A stretch of 41,805 bases of DNA from an uncultured Oscillospiraceae bacterium (GTDB taxonomy: Bacteria; Bacillota; Clostridia; Saccharofermentanales; UBA5734), in the NCBI GenBank assembly GCA_964581135.1, contig CAZOMW010000001.1:1-41805 (forward strand), given 5' to 3'. The position numbers and the translations under genes were made by a program. The notes under the pieces were generated by a model that was not told where the DNA came from, searched no databases, and saw nothing but the letters and a program-made list of their open reading frames with translations. Shown piece by piece: positions 6,200 to 31,513 of this stretch (position 1 is the first letter of the stretch; each line of letters opens with the position of its first letter).

Positions 6200-6223
6200 C
6201 AGCAACAGGCAAAGGAATTTGAT

Positions 6224-6724
6224 ATGAACAAGGATACAGTTTACATTGGCAACGACCATGGCGGCTACGAAACAAAGGTTCAGATCCTAAAATATCTGGA
6301 CGAACTGGGCATCCCCTATATTGATTTCGGCGGTCATTCCAGCGAAATCGTTCGCTATCCTTATTATGCCGCCCAGGTGGCAAGTGCTGTTTCCACTGGC
6401 AAGGCCAGCCGCGGTATTTTGATCTGCTCTACTGGCATAGGCATGAGTATCATGGCTAATAAATACCCGAATGTCCGCGCTTCCGTGTGCACGAGCCACT
6501 ATATGGGCAAGATTACCCGGGCGCACAATAATTCCAACATTCTCTGCCTCGGCGGTAAAATCACCGGCATTTTTGAAATTTTTGATATTCTGGATGCCTG
6601 GCTTAACACCGATTATGAAGGCGGCAGACATGATATCTCGCTTGGTCTGCTGGCGGAAGCTGAGGGCTGTCTGGCACAAGGCTGTGAATGGGAACCGGCA
6701 GTTCCGGAAGAAGGCAGACAATAG
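6224..6724 (+). CDS. rpiB: RpiB/LacA/LacB-family sugar-phosphate isomerase
   Basis: IGNDHGGYETK, ICSTGIGMSIMANK, HNNSNILCLGG and EGGRH motifs. A C-terminal tail of about 15 aa extends beyond the usual end. Confidence 0.88.
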   Translation: MNKDTVYIGNDHGGYETKVQILKYLDELGIPYIDFGGHSSEIVRYPYYAAQVASAVSTGKASRGILICSTGIGMSIMANKYPNVRASVCTSHYMGKITRAHNNSNILCLGGKITGIFEIFDILDAWLNTDYEGGRHDISLGLLAEAEGCLAQGCEWEPAVPEEGRQ

Positions 6725-6746
6725 CTGTAAACCGGCAGTTCCGGAA
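6693..6746 (+). repeat. 17-bp perfect direct repeat (aaccggcagttccggaa) x2, 37 nt apart, straddling the rpiB stop
   Basis: The copies are at 6693-6709 and 6730-6746, each preceded by gctgt. Confidence 0.9.
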
Positions 6747-6796
6747 AAATTAAAGCGAGAATTTTCAGCCTGGTTTGGCGGTATGGAGGTCAATAA

Positions 6797-7726: not shown

Positions 7727-7746
7727 ATTAATCTTCAGGAGACTTA

Positions 7747-8745
7747 ATGGTAACCTCAGCAATTCAAAGTGTGCTCTCGCTGCTGATCCTGATCGGGGTC
7801 GGTTATGTTGTCGCCAGCCAATCCTGGTATCCAGAATCGGGCACCGCGTTTTTATCTAAATTATGTGTGCAGGTGGCAATACCTTGCCATATGTTTATCA
7901 GCACGATCACGAACATCAAAACGCCGCAGACACTGGCGGAGCTGGTACGCAATCTGCCGGTGCCATATCTGACGATTCTCGTAAGTCTGCTTATGGGTCT
8001 GGCTATAGCCAGGGTGTTTAGAATCCATCCGACCCGGCGCGGAGTTTTCATAAATGCCGTAACGTTTTCTAATGTCGTTCTGGTTGGATTTGTTGTGGTT
8101 GAAACCATATTCGGCGAAGCTGCCATGCCCGATGTCATGGTTTACTACTTTGCCAACACTACACTGTTCTGGACAGTAGGAGTAACACTACTGCGACAGG
8201 ATGGTGAAAAAGCACGTCAGCTGGCAGTCGGTCCAGACGCAACTGTAGTCGGCAGCAGGAATCGTGCCGGCATAGTGCGCCTTTTTCTACGCAGCCTGGC
8301 TTCACCGCCGCTGATGGCGGTTGTCCTTGGAATTGTGGTAATTCTGACCAGAATCGAGCTGCCGGATTTTATCATGTCGCCAATCATGAGCCTGCGCAAT
8401 ATGACAACACCGCTGGCCATGATCTTTACCGGAGCCATTATCCGAGCGACTGATTTCAAGCGAACCAAGGTTTCCCGTGATCTGATTCTGGTAATGGCGG
8501 CACGTTTTGTGGTAACACCGGTTTTCATGGTATTACTGCTCAGGCCGATACCCATTACTACACAAATGAAACAGATTTTCTTCTTGATGGCAACAATGCC
8601 CGTTATGACACAATTGGGAATTATGTCCAAGGAATCAGGCAGTGATTATGAATATGCCTCGCTGCTGGTCACATTTACAACTGCTTTCAGCATGATGGCA
8701 CTTCCGCTTTATCTTTATGTTCTTGAACGCTTTCAGATCTTTTAA
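7747..8745 (+). CDS. AEC (auxin efflux carrier / Mem_trans) family permease
   Basis: 332 aa and about 10 TM segments, in the two-halves architecture with a central polar loop that is typical of AEC transporters. Confidence 0.82.
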   Translation: MVTSAIQSVLSLLILIGVGYVVASQSWYPESGTAFLSKLCVQVAIPCHMFISTITNIKTPQTLAELVRNLPVPYLTILVSLLMGLAIARVFRIHPTRRGVFINAVTFSNVVLVGFVVVETIFGEAAMPDVMVYYFANTTLFWTVGVTLLRQDGEKARQLAVGPDATVVGSRNRAGIVRLFLRSLASPPLMAVVLGIVVILTRIELPDFIMSPIMSLRNMTTPLAMIFTGAIIRATDFKRTKVSRDLILVMAARFVVTPVFMVLLLRPIPITTQMKQIFFLMATMPVMTQLGIMSKESGSDYEYASLLVTFTTAFSMMALPLYLYVLERFQIF

Positions 8746-8773
8746 TTGCCAGTAACCGGCGGAGGTGAGCGTA

Positions 8774-10096
8774 ATGCCTTTCGCAATTGCGATCAATAAT
8801 GCTGTTATCCTCTCGGCGCACACTGATTATGTACCTTTTATCGGCAGTGTCGGTATCAGCGAGGGGCGGATTGCCTGGATCGGTGAGAAGCCGATCGCCC
8901 CTGGTGAGGCAGCAAAACGTATTGATGCTGCGGGTCATATTCTGATGCCCGGGCTGTTTAACGCTCATTGCCATGGTGATATGACTTTTGCCCGCGGTCT
9001 GGGTGATGATCTGACTTTACTTGAGCAAAATGAAGCCTTTGCAGACACTGATTGGTTCTACACATTAATCAATGATGATGATCGTTTTTATTCTCGCCAG
9101 CTTACTTATTGCGAAGCGCTGCTTTCAGGCACAACTTTCCTCAACGAAAACATGTACTGGGGTTTGGGCGAACGCTCGGCTGAAGCTATGGCTGCTACTG
9201 GTATTAAGGGCGCGCTTAGCGAAGATATCCGCTACGATTTTACCAGACCGGCTGAGCTGCTGAGCGATACCAGACTGGCAGAGCTGGCAGCCAGGGCTCA
9301 GGACTGCGGCCTGATCCCGGTTCTTGGCGGCTTATCCGAAGAAGATTATTCTGCTACTCTTTTGCAGCGTGTTGAAGCCAAACGCAGCCAGTTTGATCTT
9401 ATTCTGACTTGTCATCTGGCTGAAACTGACTGGCGGGTAGAACGCATAGCGGCGCTTTACGATTGCACACCGATTGAGTACCTGGCGCAAAACAACTGTC
9501 TGCACGAGAAAATCCTGGGTTCGCATGTCGTCTGGACGACCCCGCATGATCTTGAACTGCTGGCTAAGTACAATGTAAAGATTGTCAATACACCTCTATG
9601 TGAGATGAAAATCGCGGACGGGATTGCCCGGATTCCGGCAATGGTTCAGACCGGCCTTTGTGTCTGCCTGGGTACCGACGGCGCCATGTGGAACAACAGC
9701 AATGACATATTTCGTGAAATGAAAGGCATGCAGTTACTGCACACTGTAAACTCCGGCATTCGCAGCCTGAGTGTACAGGCTGTACTGGATATGGCAACGC
9801 TAAATGGTGCTGAAGCATTCGGACTTGGTGAGGAAACGGGCAGCATCGAAGTCGGCCGCTGTGCAGACTTGATCCTGATAAACACTGAACAGGCGCATCT
9901 GACTCCGTTGCGGCTCGGCAAACACGAAAATATAGCCTCATCTGTGGTCTACAACGCTACCGGCCGGGATGTAAGCGATGTCTTTGTCAACGGCAGTCAG
10001 GTTGTTGAACGCGGCAACTTAATGACTGCTGATCTGGCAGACATTCGAGCCCGTGTTACAGAGACTTCGGCAAAGGTTGCTGCTGCGCTAAACTGA
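8774..10096 (+). CDS. Amidohydrolase-superfamily deaminase/chlorohydrolase (MtaD/SsnA/guanine-deaminase-like, COG0402 type)
   Basis: Metal ligand motifs NAHCHGDMT (HxH), CHLAET and LGTDGAMWNNSNDIF, plus a C-terminal GSIEVGRCADLIL. ATG 8774 is preferred over GTG 8765 because GGAGGTG lies 6 nt upstream. Confidence 0.85.
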   Translation: MPFAIAINNAVILSAHTDYVPFIGSVGISEGRIAWIGEKPIAPGEAAKRIDAAGHILMPGLFNAHCHGDMTFARGLGDDLTLLEQNEAFADTDWFYTLINDDDRFYSRQLTYCEALLSGTTFLNENMYWGLGERSAEAMAATGIKGALSEDIRYDFTRPAELLSDTRLAELAARAQDCGLIPVLGGLSEEDYSATLLQRVEAKRSQFDLILTCHLAETDWRVERIAALYDCTPIEYLAQNNCLHEKILGSHVVWTTPHDLELLAKYNVKIVNTPLCEMKIADGIARIPAMVQTGLCVCLGTDGAMWNNSNDIFREMKGMQLLHTVNSGIRSLSVQAVLDMATLNGAEAFGLGEETGSIEVGRCADLILINTEQAHLTPLRLGKHENIASSVVYNATGRDVSDVFVNGSQVVERGNLMTADLADIRARVTETSAKVAAALN

Positions 10097-10232
10097 TGAT
10101 TGTGTCGCAGTTAATGGAAACTGGTGCCGCTTGAATACTGATGTCGCACGAAGAATTAATAACTGAACCGGCGACTCTTCTGTGCACAACAGGATTTATG
10201 CCTGGAATCAGCGCTAAGAAAGGGAAGACAAT

Positions 10233-11093
10233 ATGCAGCCAGCAGAGAATAATAAAAAAATCAACCGGGCCAGTGCGCCCCGCTCTGAAAATGAAGGAGT
10301 TTATCATCTGCAGCTTAAGCCCGGTGATGTGCCGCCTTACGTTATCCTGCCCGGTGCGCCTGAACGGACCCTGATTATTGCGCAGGACTGGACTGAAGTC
10401 CGGGAGGTCGCGTCCTACCGTGAATACAAAACTGTTACTGGCAAGTACAAGGATGTGCCTCTGGCAACAATCTCAACCGGCATCGGCGGCGCCAGTTCGG
10501 AAATCTGCATTCATGAGCTGAATGTGCTTGGTGTGCATACCTGTATCCGGGTCGGCACAACCGGCTGTATTGTGCCGGAATATGATCTGGGCGACCTGAT
10601 TATCCCGGTAGCGGCTGTCCGCAAGGACGGAACCTCTGCCACTTATATCGAACCGGAATTCCCGGCCTTTGCCAATACCTATGTGGTAATGGCGCTGATG
10701 CAGGCCTGCGAACGGCTCGGCTTCCGCTACGGATTGGGACTGAGTTATACAGTCGGTTCCTTCTATATCGGCCAGGGCAGGCCTCTGAATGAGGATGGCT
10801 CGGGTTACTGGCCATCTTTTGCCGATCATATTATTCCTGATCTGCAGGCCGCCCGGGTTACCAACATCGAAATGGAAGCTGCCGCTCAATTTGTGGTTGG
10901 TTATCTGCATGACATGCGGATGGGCGCGATTCTGTCAGTTGTCTCCAACCGGGTGCTCGATCGCTGGGGTGATAATGGCGGCGAAGCCAAAGCTTGTCTG
11001 GCCGCCTCGGAAGCTTTAGCTGTTCTGGCAGAGTGGGACAGAAACGGTAAGTTGCCTTTCCACACCACGGCGGAAAATGATATCATAATCTAA
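10233..11093 (+). CDS. PNP_UDP_1-family nucleoside phosphorylase (uridine-phosphorylase-like)
   Basis: VYHLQLKPGDVPPYVILPGAPERT, STGIGGASSEICIHEL, RVGTTG and NIEMEAAA motifs. A basic N-terminal extension of about 25 aa is present. Confidence 0.85.
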   Translation: MQPAENNKKINRASAPRSENEGVYHLQLKPGDVPPYVILPGAPERTLIIAQDWTEVREVASYREYKTVTGKYKDVPLATISTGIGGASSEICIHELNVLGVHTCIRVGTTGCIVPEYDLGDLIIPVAAVRKDGTSATYIEPEFPAFANTYVVMALMQACERLGFRYGLGLSYTVGSFYIGQGRPLNEDGSGYWPSFADHIIPDLQAARVTNIEMEAAAQFVVGYLHDMRMGAILSVVSNRVLDRWGDNGGEAKACLAASEALAVLAEWDRNGKLPFHTTAENDIII

Positions 11094-12031
11094 TGAGTGT
11101 TTTAGTTGTTTTGCAGCAGATAGCACCGCTGTTCATAATCATGTTCATTGGTCTCGCGATCGGGAAACTGCACATATCAAATCAGGCAATCACCCAATTC
11201 TTATCCTGGGTCTGCATTTCGGTTTTTCTGCCGGCTTCGCTGATCAAGTCGTTTTCAGCACCAATGACCGCGGCAATGATTCGTGAAGGCTCTATCCTGA
11301 TTATCGCCGGGGCAGTTACCCTGATTTTTGCCTTTTTTCTTTCTTTTGCGGTTGTTCGTATCCTGAAAATGAAAATACCGTCATCTAATATCGTTTATTT
11401 TTCGCTGATGTTCTCAAATTTCGGTTTTGTCGGCGTCGGTATTCTTACGGCAGTATATGGCGATCGGGGTCTTTTTTATATGACAATGTATGTGCTGATC
11501 ATGCGTTTTGCGTTCAATTCCTTTGGAACCGTTGTGATGCAGCGTGGTGTCGACAATAAGGAACGGCTGTCTTTCCGCCAGGTTTTTATTAATCCGCCGA
11601 TCATCGCTCTGGTTGTTTCTCTGTTTGTCATGGCCTTTCAAATTCGTTTTCCGGCTCCGGTAAAAGCCAGTATTGATTCGCTGGCAGCCTGCCTTTCACC
11701 TGTTGGCATGCTGACGGTTGGAATGATTACCGCCAATTTCCCTTTACGTGCTTTCTTCTCAAACGCCCGTGTTTATGTGCTGGTATTTTTACGTCTGCTG
11801 GGAATTCCCCTTGCTGTAACTGTAGCGATGTGGCTGGTGGGTTTCCGCGGTCTGATGCTGACGGCTTCAGCTCTTACCATGGCACTGCCGGCGGCGGCAA
11901 ATTGCTGCCTTCTGGCTGAACGGTATAATGGAGATGTAATGCTTGGCACCCAGGTTGTTACCATAACTAATATCTTTTCTGTCATCACGATGCCGATTGT
12001 TGTTGCCTTTGCGGAACGACTGGCTGGCTGA
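11093..12031 (+). CDS. AEC (Mem_trans) family permease, second copy
   Basis: 312 aa polytopic membrane protein. Its start overlaps the preceding stop (TAATG). Confidence 0.82.
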   Translation: MSVLVVLQQIAPLFIIMFIGLAIGKLHISNQAITQFLSWVCISVFLPASLIKSFSAPMTAAMIREGSILIIAGAVTLIFAFFLSFAVVRILKMKIPSSNIVYFSLMFSNFGFVGVGILTAVYGDRGLFYMTMYVLIMRFAFNSFGTVVMQRGVDNKERLSFRQVFINPPIIALVVSLFVMAFQIRFPAPVKASIDSLAACLSPVGMLTVGMITANFPLRAFFSNARVYVLVFLRLLGIPLAVTVAMWLVGFRGLMLTASALTMALPAAANCCLLAERYNGDVMLGTQVVTITNIFSVITMPIVVAFAERLAG

Positions 12032-12104
12032 TGCTTTTATTTAACCTCAGGATTTAGAGCGCTGCATTACCGGCAGGCACAGGAGCTGAATTAAGGAGAA
12101 GAGT

Positions 12105-13199
12105 ATGAACCGTTCCGAAATACCTACACCCGCAATTCTGGTGGACCTGGATGTGGTCGACACCAACATCCGGACAATGGTGGAAAACAGCCGCAAGTAT
12201 GGAATAAATCACCGACCGCATATCAAAACCCACAAAAGCGTGGAACTGGCAAAACGTCAGGTTGAGCTCGGCGCCAGAGGCATAACCTGCGCCAAACTCG
12301 GTGAAGCGGAAGTTATGGCAGCAGCCGGTTTCGATGATATTCTTGTCGCCTTTCCGCTGATCGGTGAGGATAAGTTGCAGCGGCTGCAGGCTTTGCTGGA
12401 ACAGGGCATCACTCTTCGAACAATAGTCAACAGTGAAGCCGGAGCAGCGGGTATTGCTACAGTTGGCGAACGGCTTGGCAGTCCGGTTGAAGTGCTGATC
12501 GAAATTGACGGCGGAATTGACCGCGGTGGTCTTAAGCCCGGTGAACCGGCAGTTGAATTCGCCCGCAAAATCAGGAACCTTACTGGAATCAAAGTTGTCG
12601 GTATCCTGTACTTCGGCGGCGGTATCGGCAAGAAGGATTCGCCGGTAAATGTGATTGAAAAAAGTCTGCGCGAACGCGATGAAATTATCCGGACAGCCGA
12701 GCTGCTGCGAGCGGAAGGACTGACAATGGATATTCTCAGCGGCGGCTCTTCCTTTAGCTCCAAAAACGCGGAATGTCTGGAAGGTCTGACTGAGGTAAGA
12801 GCGGGTACTTATATATTCAATGATGTTTCACAGCTGGTTATCGGCTATGCCCGGCAGGAGGACTGCGCTTTAACCTGTATTGCAACAGTTATCAGCCGTC
12901 CGGATGAGTATTCGGCAATTATTGATGCCGGATCCAAAACACTTACCTCGGAAACAAATCCGCAGCGACCGGGATACGGTTATATTATTGAGGATCCAAG
13001 GATCCAGATTGTCAAGCTTAATGAAGAACACGGATTTCTGAGGTCAGAATCGCGCCTTAAACTCAGCATCGGCGAAAAGATAACAATTATTCCCAATCAT
13101 GTCTGCCTGCTGCCAAATATGGTGGACGAAATGTATGGTATGCGTGGAGAAAAACTGGAAAAGATGCTCAAAGTGGATGCCCGCGGCTGTAATCGCTAA
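12105..13199 (+). CDS. D-TA-family PLP-dependent enzyme (alanine-racemase-N fold; D-threonine aldolase / D-serine or D-3-hydroxyaspartate dehydratase-like)
   Basis: TPAILVDLDVVDTNI...HRPHIKTHKS (PLP lysine context) and a C-terminal LNEEHGFL...IIPNHVC motif. RBS AAGGAGAAG. Confidence 0.85.
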   Translation: MNRSEIPTPAILVDLDVVDTNIRTMVENSRKYGINHRPHIKTHKSVELAKRQVELGARGITCAKLGEAEVMAAAGFDDILVAFPLIGEDKLQRLQALLEQGITLRTIVNSEAGAAGIATVGERLGSPVEVLIEIDGGIDRGGLKPGEPAVEFARKIRNLTGIKVVGILYFGGGIGKKDSPVNVIEKSLRERDEIIRTAELLRAEGLTMDILSGGSSFSSKNAECLEGLTEVRAGTYIFNDVSQLVIGYARQEDCALTCIATVISRPDEYSAIIDAGSKTLTSETNPQRPGYGYIIEDPRIQIVKLNEEHGFLRSESRLKLSIGEKITIIPNHVCLLPNMVDEMYGMRGEKLEKMLKVDARGCNR

Positions 13200-21835: not shown

Positions 21836-22804
21836 TTGAAAAAAGTAGTGATCGCTCAAAAAACCAATCCGCAGATTGTGGCTATGCTGGCCGAAAAGGC
21901 CGAAGTTGTACAGGTCAATGAAGGCAGCGTTGAAGATCTTAGAGAAAAACTCAAAGGTGCTTACGCAGTATTTCTGGGAACCTGGGTTAAATTCACAGCC
22001 GAACTTATGGATATATCACCCGAGCTTAAAGTTATCTCGCGCACCGGCGTCGGCGTCGATAATGTTGATATTGCCGCTGCCAGCGAGCGGGGAATTATGG
22101 TACTGAATACGCCAACAGCAAATGCTGTTTCCGTTGCAGAACACGCCGTTACTTTGATTCTGGCGCTGGCCAAGCAGCTGTTTTTCCTGGACGGCAGTAT
22201 TCGTGACGATAATTTCAAAGCCCGCCGTCTGAATCTGCCGATTGATGTCGACGGGAAAACTCTTGGCCTGATAGGCTGTGGTGGAATCGGACGCCTTGTC
22301 GCGCAGAAGTGTCGTCTGGGTTTCAACATGAAGGTTTTAGGCTACGACCCCTATTTGAAAACCGCACCAGAGGGAATCGAGCTGGTAAAAGACATCGAGG
22401 ATATCTACCGGCAGTCCGATTTTATTTCAATCCACTTACCGTTGACAGATGAAACCAGGAACATGATCAACGCTGAGACACTGACAAAATTCAAACCCGG
22501 AGCGATTCTGATCAATACCTCCCGCGGCGGCATTGTTGACGAAGCTGCCCTGGCGGCGGCACTGAATTCCGGACAGATAGCCGGTGCCGGTCTGGATGTT
22601 TTTTCACAGGAGCCTGTTCCCATGGAAAGCCCGTTGCTGCAGGCGAAGAATCTGATCATGACACCGCACAGCGCCGCTCTGACGCAGGAATGTGTACTCC
22701 GGGTTGCTACCGCCGCTGCTGAAGGCATTATTGCTGCTGTTGAAGGCCGTGAACCGGCTTCCGTATTCAACCAACGTGAACTGATCAGGAGGAAAGAAGT
22801 ATGA
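21836..22804 (+). CDS. D-isomer-specific 2-hydroxyacid dehydrogenase (PGDH / glyoxylate-hydroxypyruvate reductase-like)
   Basis: GLIGCGGIGRLVA NAD loop, SRGGIVDE and TPHSAA. TTG start, with AAGGAG 7 nt upstream. Confidence 0.88.
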   Translation: MKKVVIAQKTNPQIVAMLAEKAEVVQVNEGSVEDLREKLKGAYAVFLGTWVKFTAELMDISPELKVISRTGVGVDNVDIAAASERGIMVLNTPTANAVSVAEHAVTLILALAKQLFFLDGSIRDDNFKARRLNLPIDVDGKTLGLIGCGGIGRLVAQKCRLGFNMKVLGYDPYLKTAPEGIELVKDIEDIYRQSDFISIHLPLTDETRNMINAETLTKFKPGAILINTSRGGIVDEAALAAALNSGQIAGAGLDVFSQEPVPMESPLLQAKNLIMTPHSAALTQECVLRVATAAAEGIIAAVEGREPASVFNQRELIRRKEV

Positions 22805-24147
22805 ATGCACCACAATACATTCTCGGGATTGACTGCGGAACCTCTTCCGTAAAAACAGGTTTATTTGATCTTGACATGAACCTGGTAGCTGAAACAAGGT
22901 CACCGCATAGTTACATCACTAACGGACTGGCGGTCGAAATTGACCCTAACGAACTGTTTGCTTCGTTTCTGCGCTCGCTGGAAGGTTTACGCGAATACCT
23001 GCCCAATGTAAAGGCAATGGGTTTTTCCGGCCTTTGCCCTGATCTGATTCTGATGGATGAACAGGGCAACTCGCTTGATAACGGCATTATTCATCTTGAC
23101 CGGCGCAGCGAAAAACAGGGCCTGGAAATCGTTGAAAAGTTCGGTGAAGAACGTTTCATCTCAATTGCCGGCAACGTACCCTGCCCCGGCGGCATGTCAA
23201 TAACCAGCCTGATGTGGATGCGGGACAATAAACCGGAGATATACAACAAAGCCTACAAATTCGGACATACGACCAGCTATTTCATTGCCCGGCTTACAGG
23301 CAACTTCGTAATTGATCCGACCAATGCCGGCTTTAACGGACTTTTTGATACAGTAGGCATGACCGGCTGGAGCGAAGAAATCTGCGAGACCTTCGATATC
23401 CGCCGCGATATTCTGCCGGAAATTAAAATGTGTTACGAAGAAGCCGGCCGGATAACTCCTGAAGCCGCAAAAATTACCGGCCTGCCGGAGGGAATTCTGG
23501 TAATTGCCGGCGGCGGCGATACTGCCTGTTCCGTATACGGGGCCGGCTGTGACACTAATGGCACGCTGCTTAACTCAACCGGAACAGTTGAGGTTATGGC
23601 CATGTGCACAGACAAACCTCATGCCACAGGCCGTTATCTGCTGCGTCCTGCCTGCAACGATGGTCATTGGGTTGTGATGAATCTGATCGGAGCCGGCGGC
23701 GAAAGCCTCAACTGGTTCTACGATAATTTCTGCCGTGAAATGAGTAAGTCGGAATTTTTTGACGAATATCTCCCCAGCCTGTTAGGCAAACTCGATACTG
23801 ATGTTCTGATGACACCCTATCTGGCCGGCGATCGCTGCAGTGTTATCAACAAGGCCGCCACGGTAACAGGCCTGACTCTGGCTACATCCCGTGATGACAT
23901 GCTGGTTGGTCTGGTAAAAGGAATGATCGGTCAGCTGAAGGACGGCATGGACGATTTCCAGCGCTTTGCCGGCAAACTTGACGATACGATCTACTTCACC
24001 GGTGGCGGTGCCGGCGCTTTATTCGATTACAAAAGGCAGATGTTCCCTCAGTTCTCTTTTGAAGGCGTTGATAATTCTGCCATGAAAGGAATCGGCCGTT
24101 TGATCCATGAGGCTTATGAAAAAGAACTGAACTCAAAAAAACAGTAA
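22801..24147 (+). CDS. FGGY-family carbohydrate kinase (xylulokinase-like, short form)
   Basis: LGIDCGTSSVKTGLFD phosphate-1 motif and AGGGDTACSVYGAG. An ATGA overlap links it to the upstream gene. Confidence 0.88.
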   Translation: MNAPQYILGIDCGTSSVKTGLFDLDMNLVAETRSPHSYITNGLAVEIDPNELFASFLRSLEGLREYLPNVKAMGFSGLCPDLILMDEQGNSLDNGIIHLDRRSEKQGLEIVEKFGEERFISIAGNVPCPGGMSITSLMWMRDNKPEIYNKAYKFGHTTSYFIARLTGNFVIDPTNAGFNGLFDTVGMTGWSEEICETFDIRRDILPEIKMCYEEAGRITPEAAKITGLPEGILVIAGGGDTACSVYGAGCDTNGTLLNSTGTVEVMAMCTDKPHATGRYLLRPACNDGHWVVMNLIGAGGESLNWFYDNFCREMSKSEFFDEYLPSLLGKLDTDVLMTPYLAGDRCSVINKAATVTGLTLATSRDDMLVGLVKGMIGQLKDGMDDFQRFAGKLDDTIYFTGGGAGALFDYKRQMFPQFSFEGVDNSAMKGIGRLIHEAYEKELNSKKQ

Positions 24148-24190: not shown

Positions 24191-24245
24191 TAGATCGGAA
24201 GAAATGGAATACGGGAAATTCAGGAATTTTCAGGAGGAAAGTAAA

Positions 24246-25217
24246 TTGCCTGCCTTTGAAATGAGTATGGCCGAATTGAAGGAATACCGCGGCAAGAGTC
24301 CGCTGCCGGCAGATTTTACAGAGTACTGGGATCGCGCCCTGGCTGAACTCGACGCCTTGCCTGGTGCCCTGGAATACCGGCTTGAGCCCGCTGATTTTGA
24401 GGCACCTGGTCTGAGCTGCAGTTACCTGTGGTTTGACGGCGTTGGAAATGCAGTTATTCGCTGCAAGCTGGTGCAACCTGAGGCTGTTGCTGCAGACGGA
24501 AGGGCCGGCGTGGCCTTGTTTCACGGCTACACCCATCATAGCGGCGACTGGTTCGACCTGTTGCCGCACGCTTATGCCGGCAGAGCAGTAATGTCGCTTG
24601 ATGTCCGCGGACAGGGCGGCCTGTCCACAGATCCAACAAATGCCATCGGTCCGACTTTGTTCGGCCATATTGTCCGCGGTGTTGCCGATCCGGATCCGGA
24701 TAAGCTGTTTTACCGTTCAGTATATCTGGATGCTGTGCAGATGACACGAATCCTGATGTCGCTCGAAGGCGTTGACCCGGATAGAATAGGCACTAGCGGC
24801 AATTCACAGGGTGGCGCGCTCGCGCTTGTTACAGCCGCTCTGAACCCCCGCATTGCCCGCTGCGCCCCGATTCATCCGTTTCTGTCGGATTTTCGCCGGA
24901 TGGTCGAACTTGATCTCGACCAGGGTGCCTACGAAGGCTTCCGGCTTTATTTCCGTAAATACGATCCTTTGCATGAACGTGAGGCTGAATTCTACGAGCG
25001 GCTGGGTTATATAGATGTACAGAATTTTGCCGTTCATGTTAAAGCAGAGGTTTTGTGGCAAACAGGGCTGATGGATACCCTGTGTGCGCCCTCTACCCAG
25101 TTCGCGATTTACAATAAACTGCTGTGTCCCAAGCATATGCTGCTCAGCCCTGACTATGGTCACGAAAAAATTGTCTATGCAGCAGATCGTATTTTCAGTT
25201 TCTTCAATAAGTTATGA
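24246..25217 (+). CDS. CE7-family acetyl esterase (acetylxylan esterase / cephalosporin-C deacetylase type)
   Basis: All three CE7 signature motifs are seen: RGQ (LDVRGQGG), GxSQG (GNSQGG) and HE (DYGHE). I propose a TTG start at 24246 (M-PAFEMSMAELKEYRG, matching the usual CE7 N-terminus) with AGGAGGA 7 nt upstream. The track ORF starts at 24204. Confidence 0.85.
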   Translation: MPAFEMSMAELKEYRGKSPLPADFTEYWDRALAELDALPGALEYRLEPADFEAPGLSCSYLWFDGVGNAVIRCKLVQPEAVAADGRAGVALFHGYTHHSGDWFDLLPHAYAGRAVMSLDVRGQGGLSTDPTNAIGPTLFGHIVRGVADPDPDKLFYRSVYLDAVQMTRILMSLEGVDPDRIGTSGNSQGGALALVTAALNPRIARCAPIHPFLSDFRRMVELDLDQGAYEGFRLYFRKYDPLHEREAEFYERLGYIDVQNFAVHVKAEVLWQTGLMDTLCAPSTQFAIYNKLLCPKHMLLSPDYGHEKIVYAADRIFSFFNKL

Positions 25218-25327
25218 GGCAATGGATGTTGTTACAGTCCTGACTGATTTTTAGATGTAAAATTATTAACAATAACGAAAGCAACGAACCGGTTTGATCA
25301 TTGTTTAGCAAATACAGGAGGGTAACC

Positions 25328-27310
25328 ATGAACAGATCAAAAGAACTTGACCAACTGGCGATCAATTCCATCCGCATACTTTCAATGGATGCAGTCCAAA
25401 AAGCAAATTCAGGGCATCCCGGCACCCCGATCGGCGCCGCCCCCATGGCTTATACTCTATGGTCGGAGGTTATGAGACATAACCCCGGCAATCCCGACTG
25501 GCCGAACCGCGACCGTTTTGTACTTAGCGTCGGCCATGCTTCAATGCTGATTTATTCACTGCTGCATCTTTTTGATTACGGTCTCGAGCTTGAGGAAATC
25601 AAAAACTTCCGGCAATGGGGCAGCAAAACACCCGGACATCCCGAATTCGGTCATACCGTAGGCATTGAAACAACGACAGGGCCACTCGGCCAGGGCATTG
25701 CCACTGCCGTAGGCATGGCACTGGCAGAAGCACATAAAGCAGCCCGCTTTAACCGTCCCGGTTACCCGATTGTCGACCACTGGACTTATACCATGATGGG
25801 CGACGGCTGCATGATGGAAGGCGTAGCCAGTGAAGCCGCTTCTCTGGCGGGCACACTGAAGCTGGGCAAACTGATTGCCATTTATGACTCTAATCGCATC
25901 AGCATCGAGGGTGATACCGACCTGGCAATGACTGAAAACGTCGGTATGCGCTTTGAAGCCTATGGCTGGCAGGTACTTCGCGTTGAAGACGGCAATGATA
26001 CCGCAGCGGTTAAAAAGGCTTTGGAAGAAGCAAAAGCGGAGACCGGGAAGCCTTCGCTGGTCATTGTTAAAACCCAGATTGCTTACGGCACACCTCTGGC
26101 CGGCTCTGAAAAAACTCACGGTAACCCGTTAGGCGTGGAAAATATTGCCAAAACACGGGAATACTATAACTGGCCGCTCAGCGAAGCCTTTGCGGTACCG
26201 CAGGAAGTTTACGATTACATGGCAGAGCAGAAGGCTGCACTGGCTGAGTCTGAGAGCGAATGGAACAGACTTTTTGCCGAGTGGGAAGTAAAGTATCCCG
26301 AGCTGGCAGCCGCATATAGAAGCGAGCTGGCAGGTGAACTGCCGGATCTGGTTGCTGATCCCGATTTCTGGAATTTCAGCGGTGAGCTGGCACCCCGTAA
26401 AGCCAGCGAAATGATTCTTACGATGTTGGGAAACAAATTACCGAACTTTATCGGCGGCAGCGCCGACCTCGCACATTCCAACTACTCTGAGATGCAGGGT
26501 ATCGACTGGTTGAGCCCGGAAAATTACGCTGGCCGCAACATCCATTTCGGCGTGCGTGAATTCGCGATGGCGGATATAGTCAACGGCCTGATACTGCACG
26601 GCGGCTTGTTTGCCTACGGCGCGACTTTCCTTGTCTTCAGTGATTACCAGAAGGCTGCTATTCGTCTGGCGGCGATCATGAATCTGCCGTCAATTTTTGT
26701 CCTGACCCACGATAGTATCGGAGTCGGCGAAGACGGTCCCACCCATGAACCGATTGAGCACCTGACTGCTTTGCGGGCCACACCTAACGTCACTGTCTGG
26801 CGTCCGGCCGATGGTAAAGAAACGGCTGCCGGCTATATTCAGGCGCTTTCCCGCAAAGGCCCTACAGCTATGGCGCTTGCCAAGCAAAACCTGTCGACAC
26901 TGGACGAAAGCGGGCCGATTGCAATGCGGGGCGGCTATATCCTCAAGGATTCCGAAAATCCGCAGGCGATCATAATTGCTACCGGCTCCGAAGTTGAAAT
27001 CGCGGTTCAGGCTTATGAGCAACTCAAGGAACGCAATATTCATGTTCGCGTTGTATCAATGCCTTCAACAGAAGTTTTTGAAGAGCAGGATGAAGAATAC
27101 AAGGCTAAGGTTCTGCCCGCTGCAATTAAAGCCCGTGTAGCTGTTGAAGCAGGCGCGACAATGCCCTGGTGCCGCTATGTCGGCCTTGACGGTGAAGTTA
27201 TCGGGATTGACCACTTCGGCGCTTCAGCTCCTGCACCGGTGCTGTTCCGCGAATTCGGCTTCACACCCGAAAATGTAGTGGCCGCTGTCGAGCGCGTAAT
27301 CGCCAGATAA
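25328..27310 (+). CDS. tkt: Transketolase (full-length, single polypeptide)
   Basis: [13 protein letters not shown] and GDGCMMEG (ThDP motif), with a conserved middle Pyr domain and C-terminal domain. The start is moved to ATG 25328 because GGAGGG lies upstream. Confidence 0.95.
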
Positions 27311-27445
27311 AGACGGTCAGTATATGCTGACTATCAGGAATAAAACTTTTTCCGGTCGCAGTTAAGCCCGTTAATTTTAGTTTCGCCAGCCTCGTTTCGA
27401 CAGAAGCGCAGGCTGGCAAACTGTTTAAAATTGAGGAGGAAAAGC

Positions 27446-28189
27446 ATGGTAGAAAAAAGAGTCGCAATTGTAACAGGTGCCGGTAAAGGCATTGGCCGAG
27501 CCATAGCAGTAGCTCTGGCAAAAGATGGTGTGCTGCCGCTGATTTTTGATATTGATCCGGCAACCGGGGCTGAGGCTGTTAAGGAAGTCGAATCTGCGGG
27601 CGGCGAATCACAATTTTTCAAGGTAGATGTAAGTAATGTTGCCAATATTGAAGCAGCAGTCGCAGAAGTCGAAAGAACATACGGTCGGATTGATATTCTG
27701 GTCAATAACGCTGGAATTCTCAGCACTGCCTGGCCTGATAATATCACCGAAACTGAATGGGATAAAGTGATGGATATAAACCTCAAGGGTGTTATTTTCA
27801 TGCTCAAATATTCCCTGCCGGCGATACTTCGCAGCCCGGCAGGACGCGTTATCAGCGTTTCATCCAATGCCGGCCGTGGCGGCGGCATTAGTTCGGGCAT
27901 TGCTTATTCCGCTTCCAAAGCTGCAATCCTTGGGGTTATGCGCAGCCTGGCACGTAAATATGCCTCAACCGGAACCACCTTCAATGTAGTAGCGCCAGGC
28001 CCTACCAGCAGTGATATCGTCAAGGGCTATACAGCAGAAGAATACGCTAAAGTTACCGCCTCCATCCCGGTCGGCCGCTTTGGCACACCGGCTGAAATCG
28101 CCTCGGCTGTTGTTTATTTCGCCTCTGAGGCAGCAGGATTTGCCACCGGCGCAACGCTTGACATTAACGGCGGTATATACATTGGTTGA
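27446..28189 (+). CDS. SDR-family oxidoreductase, FabG-like
   Basis: VTGAGKGIGRAIA, NNAG, S...YSASK and a PG motif. ATG 27446 has GAGGAGGA upstream. Confidence 0.9.
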   Translation: MVEKRVAIVTGAGKGIGRAIAVALAKDGVLPLIFDIDPATGAEAVKEVESAGGESQFFKVDVSNVANIEAAVAEVERTYGRIDILVNNAGILSTAWPDNITETEWDKVMDINLKGVIFMLKYSLPAILRSPAGRVISVSSNAGRGGGISSGIAYSASKAAILGVMRSLARKYASTGTTFNVVAPGPTSSDIVKGYTAEEYAKVTASIPVGRFGTPAEIASAVVYFASEAAGFATGATLDINGGIYIG

Positions 28190-28216: not shown

Positions 28217-28245
28217 TTGACAACAGCAGAGATTGAAAGTAATAT
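28217..28245 (+). promoter_or_regulatory. Sigma-A-type promoter of the 28379 operon
   Basis: TTGACA (28217-28222), a 17-nt spacer, then TAATAT (28240-28245). Confidence 0.55.
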
Positions 28246-28249
28246 ATAG

Positions 28250-28261
28250 TTGTATATACAA
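28250..28261. promoter_or_regulatory. Perfect 12-bp palindrome TTGTATATACAA, candidate GntR/HutC-type operator
   Basis: It starts 5 nt after the -10 box and fits the generic GntR-family GT-N-TA-N-AC dyad. A GntR/HutC regulator is the last gene of this operon. Confidence 0.55.
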
Positions 28262-28378
28262 GTACAACATAGTTGACGCGTAAAAGTAATTTTTCAGCAG
28301 TTAAAAAGTCACACACAGTCAAGACAACACGTTAATACAACATGGTCGACTGAAAACGTTGCCACTAAGGAGGATACT

Positions 28379-29725
28379 ATGCTTCATGTCAATTATCGCT
28401 CGATCGGCGAAGGCAATCTGGGAATCAGCTATACCCTTGCAGGCCTCGACAAACCGGCTGTCAAGGGTGATGAGGATTTCGTCAACCGGATTGAGAATCT
28501 GGATATTTCGGCCGCTGATTTCAAACAGCTCAACCGTGCCGTCAAAGCAATCGGGGTAACAGACCGGTTCCGTGACGTCATCGGCACTTTCAAAACCCCG
28601 GCAGGAGAAACCCCGCCCGGCTTCCGGCTCGAAAGCACCCTGATGGCTGACGGACTGTTGTCGGTTGATCTGGTACGTGATATCGGCTTCGACAAAAACG
28701 GCGTTAAACGACCGACTCAGGTTATATTTTCGGCTGATTCGGCCAACCCCTATGAAATTGCGCCGATTGCCAGGCTGCTTGGCAACCTGACCTGCAATCC
28801 CGGCATAGTTTACGATCTGTTTATCAATAATCCCAAGGCTAATATCGACCATCGCTTCAATACGATGGAAGAAGTAATGACCGAAATCGGCAATATTCTT
28901 GGCCCCGGCTGTGATATCAGTGTCGAAATCGAAGATCCTTTTGAAGAGGATTTTGATAAGATCGTGGAGGAAATCGAAAAGTACCGCGAGATTCTCTCCG
29001 ATTACCGCCTGGTCGTCAAGGTGCCCCATACCGGTCCGGTAAATAATGATAATGTCAAAGAACTGCTTGAAGGCGACCGTACCTTCAGTAAGCGTTATGA
29101 TGAGCCAGCCACAGTTGATGCTCTGCGCGGCCATAATCTGGCGCTGCGTCTGCGCGAGCATGGCTACCGGGTTAATTATACTTTGATGTTTGATCCTTAT
29201 CAGACTAACCTTGCTCTGCAGGCCAAGCCTTATTACATCAACAGTTTTGTCCGCCACCGCAAAATGCAAAGTGAAATGATCAAAAAAATGGTTGATTTCT
29301 TCAAACTGACTGGTGAGCAAAAGTATCTGGAGGACCTGCGCGCCTACATGATCAAGACCGATTACCTTGCAAACGGCGACACCGGTTATGATTTATTCGC
29401 AGTATTGAAGAAGGCTGAAGATCTGCTGGCTTACCGCCGCTATGATTCACCGGAGGGAAGCGATGGTCTTGATTCCGTGCGTCACAATCTGCGTCTGCTC
29501 AGACAGTGCAACCTGCCTGATACCCGCCTGATCATCTGCAGCATGGAAGGATCCTACAATTATCCGGACATTGATAAGCTGATCACCGAACCCGAATTCG
29601 CTGATATGCTCGACCGACTGATAATCACTGCCGAGCCCGGTTATCTGGCGCGATTCACCTCATCGAATCAGGTTGTATCCTATCAGCGTCGGTTTATGAA
29701 CGCTGCTGCAACTGCAAAAAAATAA
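28379..29725 (+). CDS. Atypical, enlarged transaldolase/fructose-6-P-aldolase-fold (class I, Schiff-base) enzyme of unknown specificity
   Basis: Strong RBS (AAGGAGGA, 6 nt spacer). By-eye alignment to the TAL/FSA motifs gives FSADSAN ~ (L)DT(A/S)D, LTCNPG ~ VTTNPS, VVKVPHT ~ VVKVPVT (Schiff-base Lys), NYTLMF ~ N(V/C)TLLF, INSFVRH ~ (V/I)SPFVGR, LIICSMEG ~ ILAASFRN and IITAEP ~ ITL/ISP. The protein is 448 aa against about 220-320 aa for known TAL/FSA enzymes. Confidence 0.72.
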   Translation: MLHVNYRSIGEGNLGISYTLAGLDKPAVKGDEDFVNRIENLDISAADFKQLNRAVKAIGVTDRFRDVIGTFKTPAGETPPGFRLESTLMADGLLSVDLVRDIGFDKNGVKRPTQVIFSADSANPYEIAPIARLLGNLTCNPGIVYDLFINNPKANIDHRFNTMEEVMTEIGNILGPGCDISVEIEDPFEEDFDKIVEEIEKYREILSDYRLVVKVPHTGPVNNDNVKELLEGDRTFSKRYDEPATVDALRGHNLALRLREHGYRVNYTLMFDPYQTNLALQAKPYYINSFVRHRKMQSEMIKKMVDFFKLTGEQKYLEDLRAYMIKTDYLANGDTGYDLFAVLKKAEDLLAYRRYDSPEGSDGLDSVRHNLRLLRQCNLPDTRLIICSMEGSYNYPDIDKLITEPEFADMLDRLIITAEPGYLARFTSSNQVVSYQRRFMNAAATAKK

Positions 29726-29754: not shown

Positions 29755-30642
29755 ATGGACAAGAAACTTATGGGCGTATTCGCGCCGATCACAACCCCGT
29801 TTACTGCTGATGAAAAGGTTGACTTCGCAGGCTTAAAAAAGAACATGGAATTTTACGCCAAGTCCCGTTTACAGGGATACCTGGCACTTGGTTCCAATGG
29901 CGAAAACAAGAGCCTGACCAATGATGAAAAGATTGAAGTTCTGCGGATCATCATTGAAAACAAACATCCTGACCAGACAGTCATGGCCGGCTGTATTTTC
30001 GAATCTACTTTCGAAACCATTGAGTTTGCCCTCAAATTCGCTGAAATGGGTGCAGATTATCTGACCCTGCTGCCACCGTCTTACTTCAAAAAACAAATGA
30101 CAGATGATGTTCTGATTCGCTACTTCACCTCAGTCGCAGACGCTGTTGACAAGCCCTGTCTTATCTACAACGCTCCGCAGTTCTGCGCCGGAACAACACT
30201 CTCGGTCAATCTGATCAAGACGGTTGCCGATCATCCCAACATTGTCGGTGTCAAGGATTCCTCCACCGGCAATATCGAAAAATACCTTTTCGCGGCGCGT
30301 GACAAGATGAGTGTTATGGCCGGCTCCGCCAATTTCTTTATGAATGCCCTGATTATGGGTGCCAGCGGCGGCATCCTCTCACTGGCAAACGCTTTCCCTG
30401 ATATCACCGCCGATCTATATGAACTGATTCAGGCTAAGGAGTGGGAAAAAGCATTCGCGCTCAACGAACGTATCTTCCAGATGAATTCTGCGGTTTCAGG
30501 TAAAGGCGGCGTCGCAGCTGTTAAATACGCTATGGACCTTGCCGGTCTGGCCGGTGGCAATCCGCGTTTGCCTTTGCTGCCTCTCGCCGAAGAAGCAAAG
30601 CAGACTATTTCCGGCTATCTCAAAAAAGACGGCATAATTTAA
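29755..30642 (+). CDS. DHDPS/N-acetylneuraminate-lyase-family class I aldolase (2-keto-3-deoxy-acid aldolase-like)
   Basis: LGSNGENKSLTNDEK (GxxGE motif), YNAPQF (catalytic Tyr context) and VGVKDSS (Schiff-base Lys). 295 aa, RBS GGAGG. Confidence 0.9.
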   Translation: MDKKLMGVFAPITTPFTADEKVDFAGLKKNMEFYAKSRLQGYLALGSNGENKSLTNDEKIEVLRIIIENKHPDQTVMAGCIFESTFETIEFALKFAEMGADYLTLLPPSYFKKQMTDDVLIRYFTSVADAVDKPCLIYNAPQFCAGTTLSVNLIKTVADHPNIVGVKDSSTGNIEKYLFAARDKMSVMAGSANFFMNALIMGASGGILSLANAFPDITADLYELIQAKEWEKAFALNERIFQMNSAVSGKGGVAAVKYAMDLAGLAGGNPRLPLLPLAEEAKQTISGYLKKDGII

Positions 30643-30731: not shown

Positions 30732-30778
30732 GGCCTGAAATGAAGAACCCGCGGTACACAAAGTGAGTGAGAATAAAC

Positions 30779-31513
30779 ATGCTTAACAGAAACAGTCCTA
30801 TCCCTCTGCACCAGCAGCTGGAAGATATAATAAAAGCTAAAATTTATAATGACGAGTGGAAACCTGACAGCCAGATTCCTTCCGAAAATGAGTTGAGCAA
30901 AACCTACGGACTCAGCAGAATGACAGCCCGTAACGTTATTCTGCGGCTTGTTTTTGAAGGCCTGTTATATCGCGTTGCCGGTAAGGGCACTTTTGTTGCG
31001 GCACCCAAAATAACAAATAAACCATTGCTGCAATTGGGTATTCAGGAACAGCTTGATCAGATGGGGATCGAAAGTGAAACCAGGCTGATTGATATCAACA
31101 AAATAAAAGCACCGCCACGTGTGCAAAAGGAACTGGCGTTAGCAGCCGATTCTACAGTTTTCAATGTCGAACGTCTGCGCTCGATAAAGGGTGATCCTCT
31201 AAGCATCCATATTTCCTACATACCAGTTGAACTGGCGGCAAAACTGGAGCAGGAAAAAAGCTTTGAAGAAAAACAGTTATGCGACATCCTTGAGGAAAAC
31301 TATCAGCTTAGCACCAGCAGGGTAGTAGAGACACTTGAAACTTCTCAGGCAACAGCGCGGGAAGCCGAGCTGCTGGGGGTTAAGCCGGGGTTCACTCTTT
31401 TGCGCCTGGAAAGCACGGAGTATGATGCTGATGACATGCCTTTTGTTTATAACCGGGTTACTTTCCGCGGCGACAAGATAAAAATAAAACTGGAATTCAA
31501 CCGCAAGGAATGA
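30779..31513 (+). CDS. GntR-family transcriptional regulator, HutC subfamily (wHTH + UTRA)
   Basis: IPSENELSKTYGLSRMTARNVILRLVFEGLLYRVAGKGTFV, followed by a UTRA-like C-domain. ATG 30779 is preferred over the track GTG 30767, though the RBS is weak for either. Confidence 0.88.
   Translation: MLNRNSPIPLHQQLEDIIKAKIYNDEWKPDSQIPSENELSKTYGLSRMTARNVILRLVFEGLLYRVAGKGTFVAAPKITNKPLLQLGIQEQLDQMGIESETRLIDINKIKAPPRVQKELALAADSTVFNVERLRSIKGDPLSIHISYIPVELAAKLEQEKSFEEKQLCDILEENYQLSTSRVVETLETSQATAREAELLGVKPGFTLLRLESTEYDADDMPFVYNRVTFRGDKIKIKLEFNRKE

Follow-up and report, generated by a model that had tools for sequence, protein, structure and literature searches.

A long, distinct transaldolase subfamily (TAL*) with a conserved catalytic set and altered phosphate-site residues in bacterial sugar-metabolism gene clusters

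A gene for a 448-amino-acid (aa) protein, located in a 41,805-nucleotide (nt) stretch of DNA from an uncultured Oscillospiraceae bacterium (contig CAZOMW010000001.1; the whole stretch is called the window below), was found to belong to a long, distinct subfamily of the transaldolase family, for which the name TAL* is used here. TAL* combines a predicted TAL/FSA-type (beta/alpha)8 barrel and an invariant set of transaldolase catalytic residues with an additional N-terminal domain, two inserts, and replaced basic residues at the canonical phosphate site. From its sequence, predicted fold, gene neighborhood and operator, TAL* is probably an active Schiff-base dihydroxyacetone transferase with a remodelled distal pocket, operating in an undescribed catabolic module. 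The window protein is also present in public data as a 100% identical entry (P0001).

The initial annotation, made by eye from the sequence, had proposed a TAL/FSA barrel with the full ordered set of motifs, and this proposal was borne out. All quoted motifs are present, namely FSAD120SAN, TCNPG (residues 138-142), VEIED (182-186), VVK214VPHT, NYTLMF (266-271), NSFVRH (288-293), CSME (387-390) and IITAEP (415-420). The Pfam model TAL_FSA (PF00923) was matched significantly, with 39.1 bits at a gathering cutoff of 27 (E=7.4e-10), the match covering only residues 119-292 and profile positions 3-161 of 285, i.e. the first half of the barrel. An AlphaFold2 (AF2) monomer model calculated from 26 family members (mean predicted local distance difference test score (pLDDT) 74.2, predicted template modelling score (pTM) 0.65) consists of an N-terminal alpha/beta domain at approximately residues 17-100 followed by eight strand-helix units forming a (beta/alpha)8 barrel. 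According to the AF2 secondary structure, the barrel strands comprise aa 116-118, 134-137, 179-183, 210-215, 264-267, 286-290, 383-387 and 414-417. A Foldseek comparison with the PDB listed 50 matches, all of which were TAL/FSA-family proteins (transaldolases, fructose-6-phosphate aldolase (FSA), sulfofructose transaldolase and TalB). The best of them was 1vpx (E=2.9e-8, target TM 0.70); the listed matches had a probability of 1.00 and target TM values of 0.6-0.72, with 12-18% identity to the small transaldolases.

Sequence comparisons with solved enzymes gave weaker signals. Full-length TAL* had no significant phmmer match among the PDB sequences (best E ~1), nor had the family profile (best E=0.034, 1vpx), and hhalign of the family with one FsaA or TalB sequence at a time gave probabilities below 5% and partly wrong registers. 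Instead, an insert-trimmed core (residues 112-222, 249-297 and 362-448; 247 aa) was searched by phmmer against the PDB sequences, whereby the top 14 matches were all transaldolases, with E-values from 0.004 to 0.11. TAL* has the fold and the catalytic features that define the TAL/FSA superfamily, but not its complete phosphate triad.

The trimmed-core alignment places the catalytic residues on those of the solved enzymes. D120-SAN aligns to DTAS, NLTCNPG to GVTTNPT (N140), ISVEI to VSVEV (E183), LVVKVPHT to VVKIPMT (K214), RVNYTLMF to NTNCTLVF (T268), YINSFVRH to YVSPFVGR (F290 and H293), and RLIICS to QILVAS (S388). Lys214 corresponds to the beta4 lysine in the VVK(L/I)P motif of the Thermus thermophilus, Thermotoga maritima and Thermoplasma acidophilum transaldolases, which we take to be the Schiff-base residue (Lys86 in T. 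acidophilum). Across 231 full-length family members (429-453 aa), D120, N140, E183, K214, N266, T268, N288 and F290 are invariant. The catalytic roles suggested earlier for Lys214 and Asp120 agree with this alignment, as does that of an acidic residue in VEIED in the case of Glu183; the alternative candidate Glu185 is Asn in 222 of the 231 members and is therefore not catalytic.

Positions 183 and 290 carry Glu and Phe in every full-length member, i.e. the transaldolase pair, without the Gln/Tyr pair of FSA. A single F178Y exchange turns TalB into an aldolase (PMC3962226), and PDB entries with swapped pairs occur among the Foldseek matches (TacTAL E60Q/F132Y, 4xz9; FSA Q59E, 4rxg; FSA Y131F, 4rxf). 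As read from the alignment, Glu183 together with Phe290 is the signature of a transferase, not of an aldolase.

The distal part of the active site differs from that of canonical enzymes. There, phosphate is bound by two arginines and one serine (R181, S226 and R228 in TalB; PMC3962226). Of this triad, TAL* retains Ser388, while the two basic positions are occupied by His293 and Glu390. These replacements, already pointed out in the initial annotation, are real and each found in 229 of the 231 members; Glu419 is present in 227. Glu390 is placed by the alignment of LIICS to ILVAS of the T. acidophilum enzyme, two residues past the conserved Ser388. In TalB, the engineered R181E exchange improved the affinity for non-phosphorylated D-glyceraldehyde (PMC3962226). 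S388 is invariant among the 231 members, as are R292, R294, R353, R368, R437 and R438, with Arg292 and Arg294 directly flanking His293. These two arginines might compensate for the lost clamp arginines, and together with Arg437 and Arg438 they could still bind phosphate. The hint in the initial annotation that the substrate may differ from an ordinary sugar phosphate has to be qualified accordingly, also because sugar-phosphate enzymes make up nearly all of the gene neighbors. Arg437 and Arg438 belong to an invariant C-terminal YQRRF helix, which has low confidence and is poorly placed in the AF2 monomer; in decameric FSA the C-terminal helix is described as swapped between subunits (Thorell 2002, as cited in PMC7092467).

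Three additional segments account for the unusual length of TAL*. Insert sizes were determined by residue spacing relative to the FsaA and TalB sequences of Escherichia coli, and they agree with the extension of about 110 aa and the inserts of about 25-30 and 50-60 aa estimated earlier. Asp6 of FsaA corresponds to D120 of TAL* (+114 aa at the N-terminus), the Schiff-base Lys and the beta5 Thr are 54 residues apart, compared to 24 in FsaA (+30), and 98 residues separate F290 from S388 between beta6 and beta7, compared to 35 in FsaA (+63) and 48 in TalB (+50). In the AF2 model, the second insert belongs to a confident helical insertion spanning residues 294-376, with helices at 294-311, 314-326 and 339-352 (pLDDT 84-97). 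The N-terminal domain reached pLDDT values of 85-90 over aa 20-100 within the full model and 78.7 when modelled alone. Foldseek found no structural neighbor for it in the PDB (best E=0.41), and an N-domain profile search returned only TAL* family members and fragments, with no other host proteins. The four sequences P0142, P0226, P0227 and P0419, at first sight fusions or stand-alone N-domains, are copies that are either chimeric or split by a frameshift.

To describe the spread of the family, several sequence collections were searched. A first homology search yielded at least 1,756 sequences. The best 120 of these were 64-83% identical to the window protein, nearly all 445-455 aa long, came from Treponema, Clostridia, Anaerolineaceae, Elusimicrobiota and Propionibacteriaceae, and, where named, were called 'transaldolase family protein', 'transaldolase' or 'hypothetical'. 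An abundant subgroup of 431-433 aa was also contained in the results of the core and N-domain profile searches. A scan with one genome per species revealed 356 carrier species, the cultured ones including Bariatricus massiliensis, Yeguia hominis, Tessaracoccus, Georgenia and Actinotalea. The carriers belong to Bacillota, Actinomycetota, Chloroflexota, Spirochaetota and Elusimicrobiota, in addition to metagenome-assembled genomes (MAGs) labelled Bacteroidota and Burkholderiales; TAL* is abundant in gut and digester metagenomes, and a plasmid search gave no match. When 1.84 billion representatives (50% identity) were searched exhaustively with phmmer, 156 matches were obtained, comprising one full-length representative and fragments, and no canonical transaldolase was present among the 150 matches listed. 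Likewise, a profile search with the trimmed core returned the TAL* family only, without intermediates to canonical transaldolases.

Over 74 loci, the median pairwise identity of TAL* was 63% and the minimum 51%. Syntenic partners in the same genome pairs were less conserved, with median identities of 50% for TktC, 45% for RpiB and 44% for GntR. The identity floor of about 51% and the higher conservation compared to the operon partners indicate a tightly constrained function.

Some family members deserve separate mention. TAL* is frameshift-split into two adjacent open reading frames (ORFs) in L094 (4001-5346) and in the protein pairs P0273/P0274 and P0178/P0307; these copies are either due to sequencing indels in long-read assemblies or pseudogenes. 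TAL* is also carried by L026 and L035 (from a MAG labelled Burkholderiales), L081 (labelled Bacteroidetes) and L083 (labelled beta proteobacterium). The gene order of the L026 cluster equals that of Bacillota MAGs such as L025, which suggests recent horizontal transfer or mis-binned contigs.

The TAL* gene of the window has its own expression signals, as had been proposed, together with a strong ribosome-binding site (RBS). A promoter-like site is located in the 189-nt gap between the preceding SDR gene and TAL*; it is a consensus match only, and such sites are no commoner in the scanned region than in shuffled sequences. It is directly followed by a palindromic operator of the HutC/GntR type, the perfect core of which (TTGTATATACAA, 28250-28261) has its sole exact copy in the window at this position. 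In the 300 nt upstream of TAL* (74 loci), the density of the operator decamer TGTATATACA is 0.69 per kb, compared to 0.015 per kb elsewhere in the same loci, a roughly 47-fold enrichment, and several of the copies counted as elsewhere actually precede TAL* genes for which the ORF caller had over-extended the start. Further copies precede RpiB, TktN and DeoC-like genes. Clostridia, Chloroflexota, Actinomycetota and Spirochaetota keep the palindrome with this core ahead of TAL* (L002, L014, L018, L020, L038, L049, L052, L054, L072, L074, L079 and others). The placement of the operator suggests that TAL* is part of a GntR-controlled regulon of sugar-phosphate rearrangement enzymes which has moved between phyla. 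The GntR/UTRA regulator encoded downstream in the window is the likely operator binder, and the TGTATATACA palindrome could be used to define the regulon and to locate further pathway genes.

In the window, TAL* is found within the order 2-hydroxyacid dehydrogenase, FGGY kinase, AXE1 esterase, transketolase, SDR, TAL*, DHDPS-family aldolase and GntR/UTRA regulator, with a ROK gene on the opposite strand in the neighborhood (Table 1). The DHDPS-family protein, 29 nt downstream of TAL*, has human 4-hydroxy-2-oxoglutarate aldolase as its best PDB match (E=6e-49, compared to 3e-36 for the best DapA) and remains below every NCBIfam cutoff; judged by these similarities, this co-operonic partner is an uncharacterised bacterial HOGA-like pyruvate aldolase. 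With a median identity of 69%, its conservation comes close to that of TAL*. In 31 of 75 loci it begins about 22 nt past the end of TAL*, and it often precedes a 2-hydroxyacid dehydrogenase resembling glyoxylate/hydroxypyruvate reductases. In 34 of the 75 loci, no more than a few nt separate the end of TktC from TAL*.

Counts of neighbors within 6 kb were based on 37 loci, dereplicated and extending for at least 6 kb to either side. Any sugar-phosphate enzyme was present in 32 of them, a sugar kinase and another aldolase in 27 each, a transketolase in 24 and a GntR gene in 11. Four arrangements were distinguished. The first comprises DUF4432, a Zn-dependent alcohol dehydrogenase (Zn-ADH), a cyclase, an ABC transporter, DHDPS, RpiB, TktN, TktC and TAL*, followed by DHDPS, a 2-hydroxyacid dehydrogenase, PfkB, GFO and a cupin. 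The second consists of several copies of DeoC-like genes, FGGY, HAD, TAL*, TktN, TktC, GntR, a class II aldolase and PHP. The third, in Anaerolineae, contains DhaK, DhaL, HAD and a class II aldolase, with GntR divergent from TAL*. The fourth is that of the window, whose SDR-TAL* arrangement is common to L001, L006 and L007. Two MAGs possess two TAL* clusters each (L025/L031 and L026/L035), and such paralogous clusters within one genome point to a catabolic module rather than to a housekeeping function. Apart from the window transketolase, RpiB (at subfamily level) and a DeoC-like aldolase, no pathway gene reached an NCBIfam equivalog. Routes for erythritol/erythrulose, apiose, inositol, sulfoquinovose, 2-keto-3-deoxygluconate (KDG) and sedoheptulose were considered, and none could be assigned to the gene cluster.

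Table 1. Positions of TAL*, its expression signals, domains, key codons and neighboring genes in the window.
Feature	Position	Strand	Basis
D-2-hydroxyacid dehydrogenase	21836-22804	+	Pfam; below NCBIfam equivalog cutoffs
FGGY sugar kinase	22801-24147	+	Pfam; below NCBIfam equivalog cutoffs
AXE1 esterase	24204-25217	+	Pfam; below NCBIfam equivalog cutoffs
Full-length transketolase	25301..27310	+	NCBIfam TIGR00232, 897 bits, cutoff 682
SDR-family oxidoreductase, immediately upstream of TAL*	27431..28189	+	Pfam adh_short
Sigma-70-type promoter-like site, TTGACA-17 nt-TAATAT	28217..28245	+	10/12 consensus matches
Palindromic operator TAGTTGTATATACAAGTA, HutC/GntR type, directly 3' of the -10 hexamer	28247..28264	.	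Sequence
RBS AAGGAGG, 5 nt 5' of ATG	28367..28373	+	Direct sequence reading
TAL* coding sequence, 448 aa, ATG start	28379..29725	+	ORF; PF00923 above cutoff
Family-specific N-terminal alpha/beta domain, aa 1-112, ordered from ~aa 17	28379..28714	+	AF2
TAL/FSA-type (beta/alpha)8 barrel, aa 113-448	28715..29722	+	AF2, Foldseek, alignment to small transaldolases
Codon AAG of Lys214, predicted Schiff-base lysine on beta4 (VVKVPHT)	29018..29020	+	Alignment
Insert 1, ~aa 219-250, between beta4 and helix alpha4	29033..29128	+	Spacing; pLDDT 57-66
Codon of His293, at the beta6 phosphate-binding Arg position (TalB R181)	29255..29257	+	INSFVRH aligned to VSPFVGR
Insert 2, ~aa 295-361, helical, between beta6 and beta7	29261..29461	+	Spacing; AF2
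Codon of Glu390, at the beta7 phosphate-binding Arg/Lys position (TalB R228, FsaA K168)	29546..29548	+	
HOGA-like DHDPS-family class I pyruvate aldolase, 295 aa, 29 nt downstream of TAL*	29755..30642	+	Pfam PF00701
GntR/HutC-family regulator with UTRA effector domain	30767..31513	+	Pfam GntR + UTRA

Several further observations were made on the neighboring genes. At the position of the phosphate-binding R520 of E. coli TktA, the three full-length partner transketolases, including that of the window, have Lys. The split TktN/TktC enzymes (L005, L016, L052, L090 and others) have Arg in 19, Asn in 12 and Ser in 3 cases at this position, and no equivalent of H461; their alignment at these sites is uncertain. 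HAD or PHP phosphatases adjoin TAL* repeatedly in several arrangements. L088 and L089 carry P0325, the representative of the largest cluster (1,624 members), with a HAD phosphatase directly after TAL* and no transketolase nearby; the TAL*-HAD pair of L088 lies beside a maltodextrin ABC transporter and GH77 locus. L090/L091 (831-7581), a locus abundant in gut metagenomes, is an unusual pile-up of class I aldolases: four DeoC-family paralogues are found together with three proteins that have a PEP_hydrolase domain, in two cases fused to an AraC domain, and the group adjoins a cluster of FGGY, HAD, TAL*, Tkt, GntR, class II aldolase and PHP. The window also contains a separate cluster on the + strand (5423-13199) encoding an SDR, a 3-hydroxyacyl-CoA dehydrogenase, two AEC-family (Mem_trans) transporters, an amidohydrolase, a PNP/UDP-family phosphorylase and a D-serine-dehydratase-like pyridoxal phosphate enzyme, the pathway of which is not obvious.

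Taking the residue mapping together with the neighborhoods, the following mechanism is proposed for TAL*. Lys214 on beta4 would bind C2 of a ketose donor as a Schiff base, and Asp120 and Glu183, probably together with a bound water and Thr268, would catalyze cleavage of the C3-C4 bond. The aldose portion would then depart, and the bound dihydroxyacetone carbanion/enamine would be retained rather than protonated and released, as expected from Phe290/Glu183, the transaldolase pair, instead of the Tyr/Gln of FSA. Finally, the three-carbon unit would be passed to an acceptor aldehyde. The donor half-site for dihydroxyacetone appears canonical. The distal pocket would be remade from His293, Ser388 and Glu390, with Glu419 added and with Arg292 and Arg294 on its flanks. 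Its cap would probably be provided by the inserts, by the N-terminal domain or by a C-terminal helix that is swapped in and bears Arg437 and Arg438. With a pocket rebuilt in this way, the substrate tail would be recognized in a manner unlike that of fructose 6-phosphate, sedoheptulose 7-phosphate, glyceraldehyde 3-phosphate and erythrose 4-phosphate in ordinary transaldolases. TAL* would be expressed from its own GntR-repressed promoter together with the HOGA-like pyruvate aldolase, and would provide the three-carbon-transfer step beside transketolase, RpiB and sugar kinases in a pentose-phosphate-like rearrangement module, which may funnel some sugar, polyol or sugar acid into the central metabolism of anaerobes.

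A number of points weigh against this proposal. PF00923 matches only half of the barrel, the sequence links to solved transaldolases appear weak (E of at least 0.004 even after trimming), and confidence in the model is moderate (mean pLDDT 74). The placement of H293, E390, E419, R292 and R294 around Lys214 is deduced from strand positions, and the proposal as a whole is drawn from sequences and models. Furthermore, the neighbors are mostly below equivalog cutoffs and do not name the pathway or substrate; no recognisable sugar-metabolism neighbor is present in 5 of the 37 loci, and the Dak neighbors in some lineages fit a dihydroxyacetone-releasing aldolase better than a transferase.

The strongest competitor, doubtful as we consider it, is an ordinary pentose-phosphate transaldolase acting on sedoheptulose 7-phosphate together with glyceraldehyde 3-phosphate, where phosphate would be bound via Arg292/Arg294 and/or Arg437/Arg438 of a swapped helix and the extra segments would serve oligomerisation or stability. 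The fully canonical catalytic set with its Glu/Phe signature is compatible with such an enzyme, all four arginines are invariant, and the low confidence of the C-terminal helix in a monomer model would be expected if this helix were swapped between subunits as described for decameric FSA. The commonest neighbors are moreover transketolase and RpiB, both pentose-phosphate partners, and in the window a bona fide transketolase and then the SDR gene precede TAL*, the transketolase at a distance of about 1 kb. However, neither clamp arginine is kept in 229 of 231 members, and one of the residues in their place is acidic; such a change in TalB lowers the preference for phosphorylated substrates (PMC3962226). 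A housekeeping role also fits poorly with an own GntR operator, with catabolic clusters containing transporters, dehydrogenases and kinases, with the occurrence of TAL* twice per genome in different clusters (L025/L031 and L026/L035), and with its far higher conservation compared to the transketolase and RpiB partners.

Clearly less probable is an FSA-type lyase, which would reversibly cleave a ketose into an aldehyde and free dihydroxyacetone, the latter then being phosphorylated by dihydroxyacetone kinase. DhaK/DhaL adjoin TAL* in Anaerolineae, some Propionibacteriaceae and one Christensenellaceae genome, FSA is among the closest solved structures, and the conserved His217 and His252 near the Lys could in principle donate a proton. 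Against this stand the Glu183/Phe290 pair in all 231 members in place of Gln/Tyr, the aldolase activity conferred by Tyr at the position equivalent to 290 (PMC3962226), and the scarcity of Dak neighbors, which occur in 2 of the 37 dereplicated loci compared to 24 with transketolase; the NCBIfam FSA equivalog (TIGR00875) scored 15 bits at a cutoff of 245.95. That TAL* is a non-catalytic relic or a regulatory protein with a transaldolase-like fold, to which the partial Pfam match and the lost phosphate clamp might point, is scarcely credible: no catalytic residue varies among the 231 members, which come from six or more phyla, and this rules out a decayed pseudoenzyme; TAL* moreover evolves more slowly than its enzyme neighbors and fills an enzyme slot in metabolic operons.

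The preferred reading of TAL* as a transferase with a remodelled distal pocket can tentatively be taken further, although we regard this extension as possible rather than probable. TAL* might represent a sixth transaldolase subfamily whose distal pocket, built from His293, Glu390, Glu419, the family-specific inserts and the N-domain, accommodates a non-phosphorylated partner in a redox-neutral aldehyde-salvage route of fermentative anaerobes. Candidate acceptors would be glycolaldehyde, glyceraldehyde or glyoxylate released by the HOGA-like or DeoC-like aldolases. Addition of the dihydroxyacetone unit to such an aldehyde would give a ketose, which could be phosphorylated by the FGGY or PfkB kinase and absorbed by transketolase and RpiB. 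If so, TAL* would be a natural counterpart of engineered biocatalysts of the TalB R181E type. TAL/FSA enzymes for non-phosphorylated substrates are sought for carbon-carbon bond formation, and TAL*, which naturally has Glu and His instead of the clamp arginines, is a direct candidate. The association with transketolase, HOGA-like aldolase, sugar kinases and a GntR operator would mark an undescribed carbohydrate pathway of anaerobes, and TAL* would add a large sixth branch, with a new domain, new inserts and a rebuilt pocket for the substrate tail, to a textbook enzyme group.

Five transaldolase subfamilies are recognized (PMC7092467), and TAL* fits none of them in length, architecture or curated models. 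It has the Glu on beta3 and the Phe on beta6 of transaldolases proper, and differs from them in matching no equivalog model and in lying outside their length range of 215-390 aa. No NCBIfam equivalog or subfamily model reached its cutoff, the best transaldolase model scoring 11.9 bits at a cutoff of 344. No solved structure in the PDB, curated equivalog or published description was found for the family or its gene cluster, which agrees with the earlier statement that TAL* matches no transaldolase class. The accompanying suggestion of an undescribed enzyme family holds in that no description was found, and has to be qualified in that Pfam recognizes the family and NCBI labels members as 'transaldolase family protein'. 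The cd00955 plant/actinobacterial TAL-type group (PMC4407918) was considered as a relative and rejected, no canonical transaldolase being significant among the matches listed in the exhaustive search.

The best structural and sequence neighbors of TAL* are the small decameric transaldolases of subfamily IV, i.e. T. maritima TM0295 (1vpx) and the enzymes of T. thermophilus (1wx0), T. acidophilum (3s0c) and Bacillus subtilis (3r8r). They have the same barrel, the same order of catalytic motifs and the same Asp, Asn, Glu, Lys, Thr and Phe residues, from which it is predicted that TAL* shares their Schiff-base transfer chemistry. In contrast to their approximately 215-230 aa, TAL* has 430-450 aa, including the 112-aa N-terminal domain, the 30-aa insert after beta4 and the 63-aa helical insert before beta7, and His293 and Glu390 of TAL* stand in place of the arginines of their FVGR and AS(I/F)R motifs. 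FsaA and FsaB of E. coli (subfamily V) have the same fold, rank among the top Foldseek matches and carry an almost identical Lys-strand motif (VVKVPVT compared to VVKVPHT). The Glu183 and Phe290 of TAL* are Gln59 and Tyr131 in these enzymes, which means that TAL* is without the aldolase signature, and their phosphate site still contains Arg134 and Lys168, unlike that of TAL*.

The 6-deoxy-6-sulfofructose transaldolase SF-TAL sets a precedent, as a transaldolase-family enzyme recruited to a dedicated catabolic pathway in which the substrate tail is not a phosphate (PMC7491151). BmSF-TAL (8bc3/8c4i) was found among both the sequence and the structure matches of TAL*, and differs as a small decamer of about 220 aa per subunit without extra domain or inserts. 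No recognisable sulfoquinovose-pathway gene, such as one for a sulfoquinovosidase, an SQ isomerase or a sulfolactaldehyde enzyme, was present among the annotated TAL* neighbors, some neighbors being unannotated and no dedicated search having been made. TalB (subfamily I) resembles TAL* residue for residue in RISTEVD/DISVEIE, NCNLTLLF/RVNYTLMF and ISPFVGR/INSFVRH (TalB/TAL*). It is distinguished as a 317-aa dimer with other extra helices, without the N-terminal domain, and with R181, S226 and R228 kept. The engineered removal of the beta6 arginine in TalB, intended to suit non-phosphorylated acceptors better (PMC3962226), parallels the natural His293/Glu390 of TAL*.

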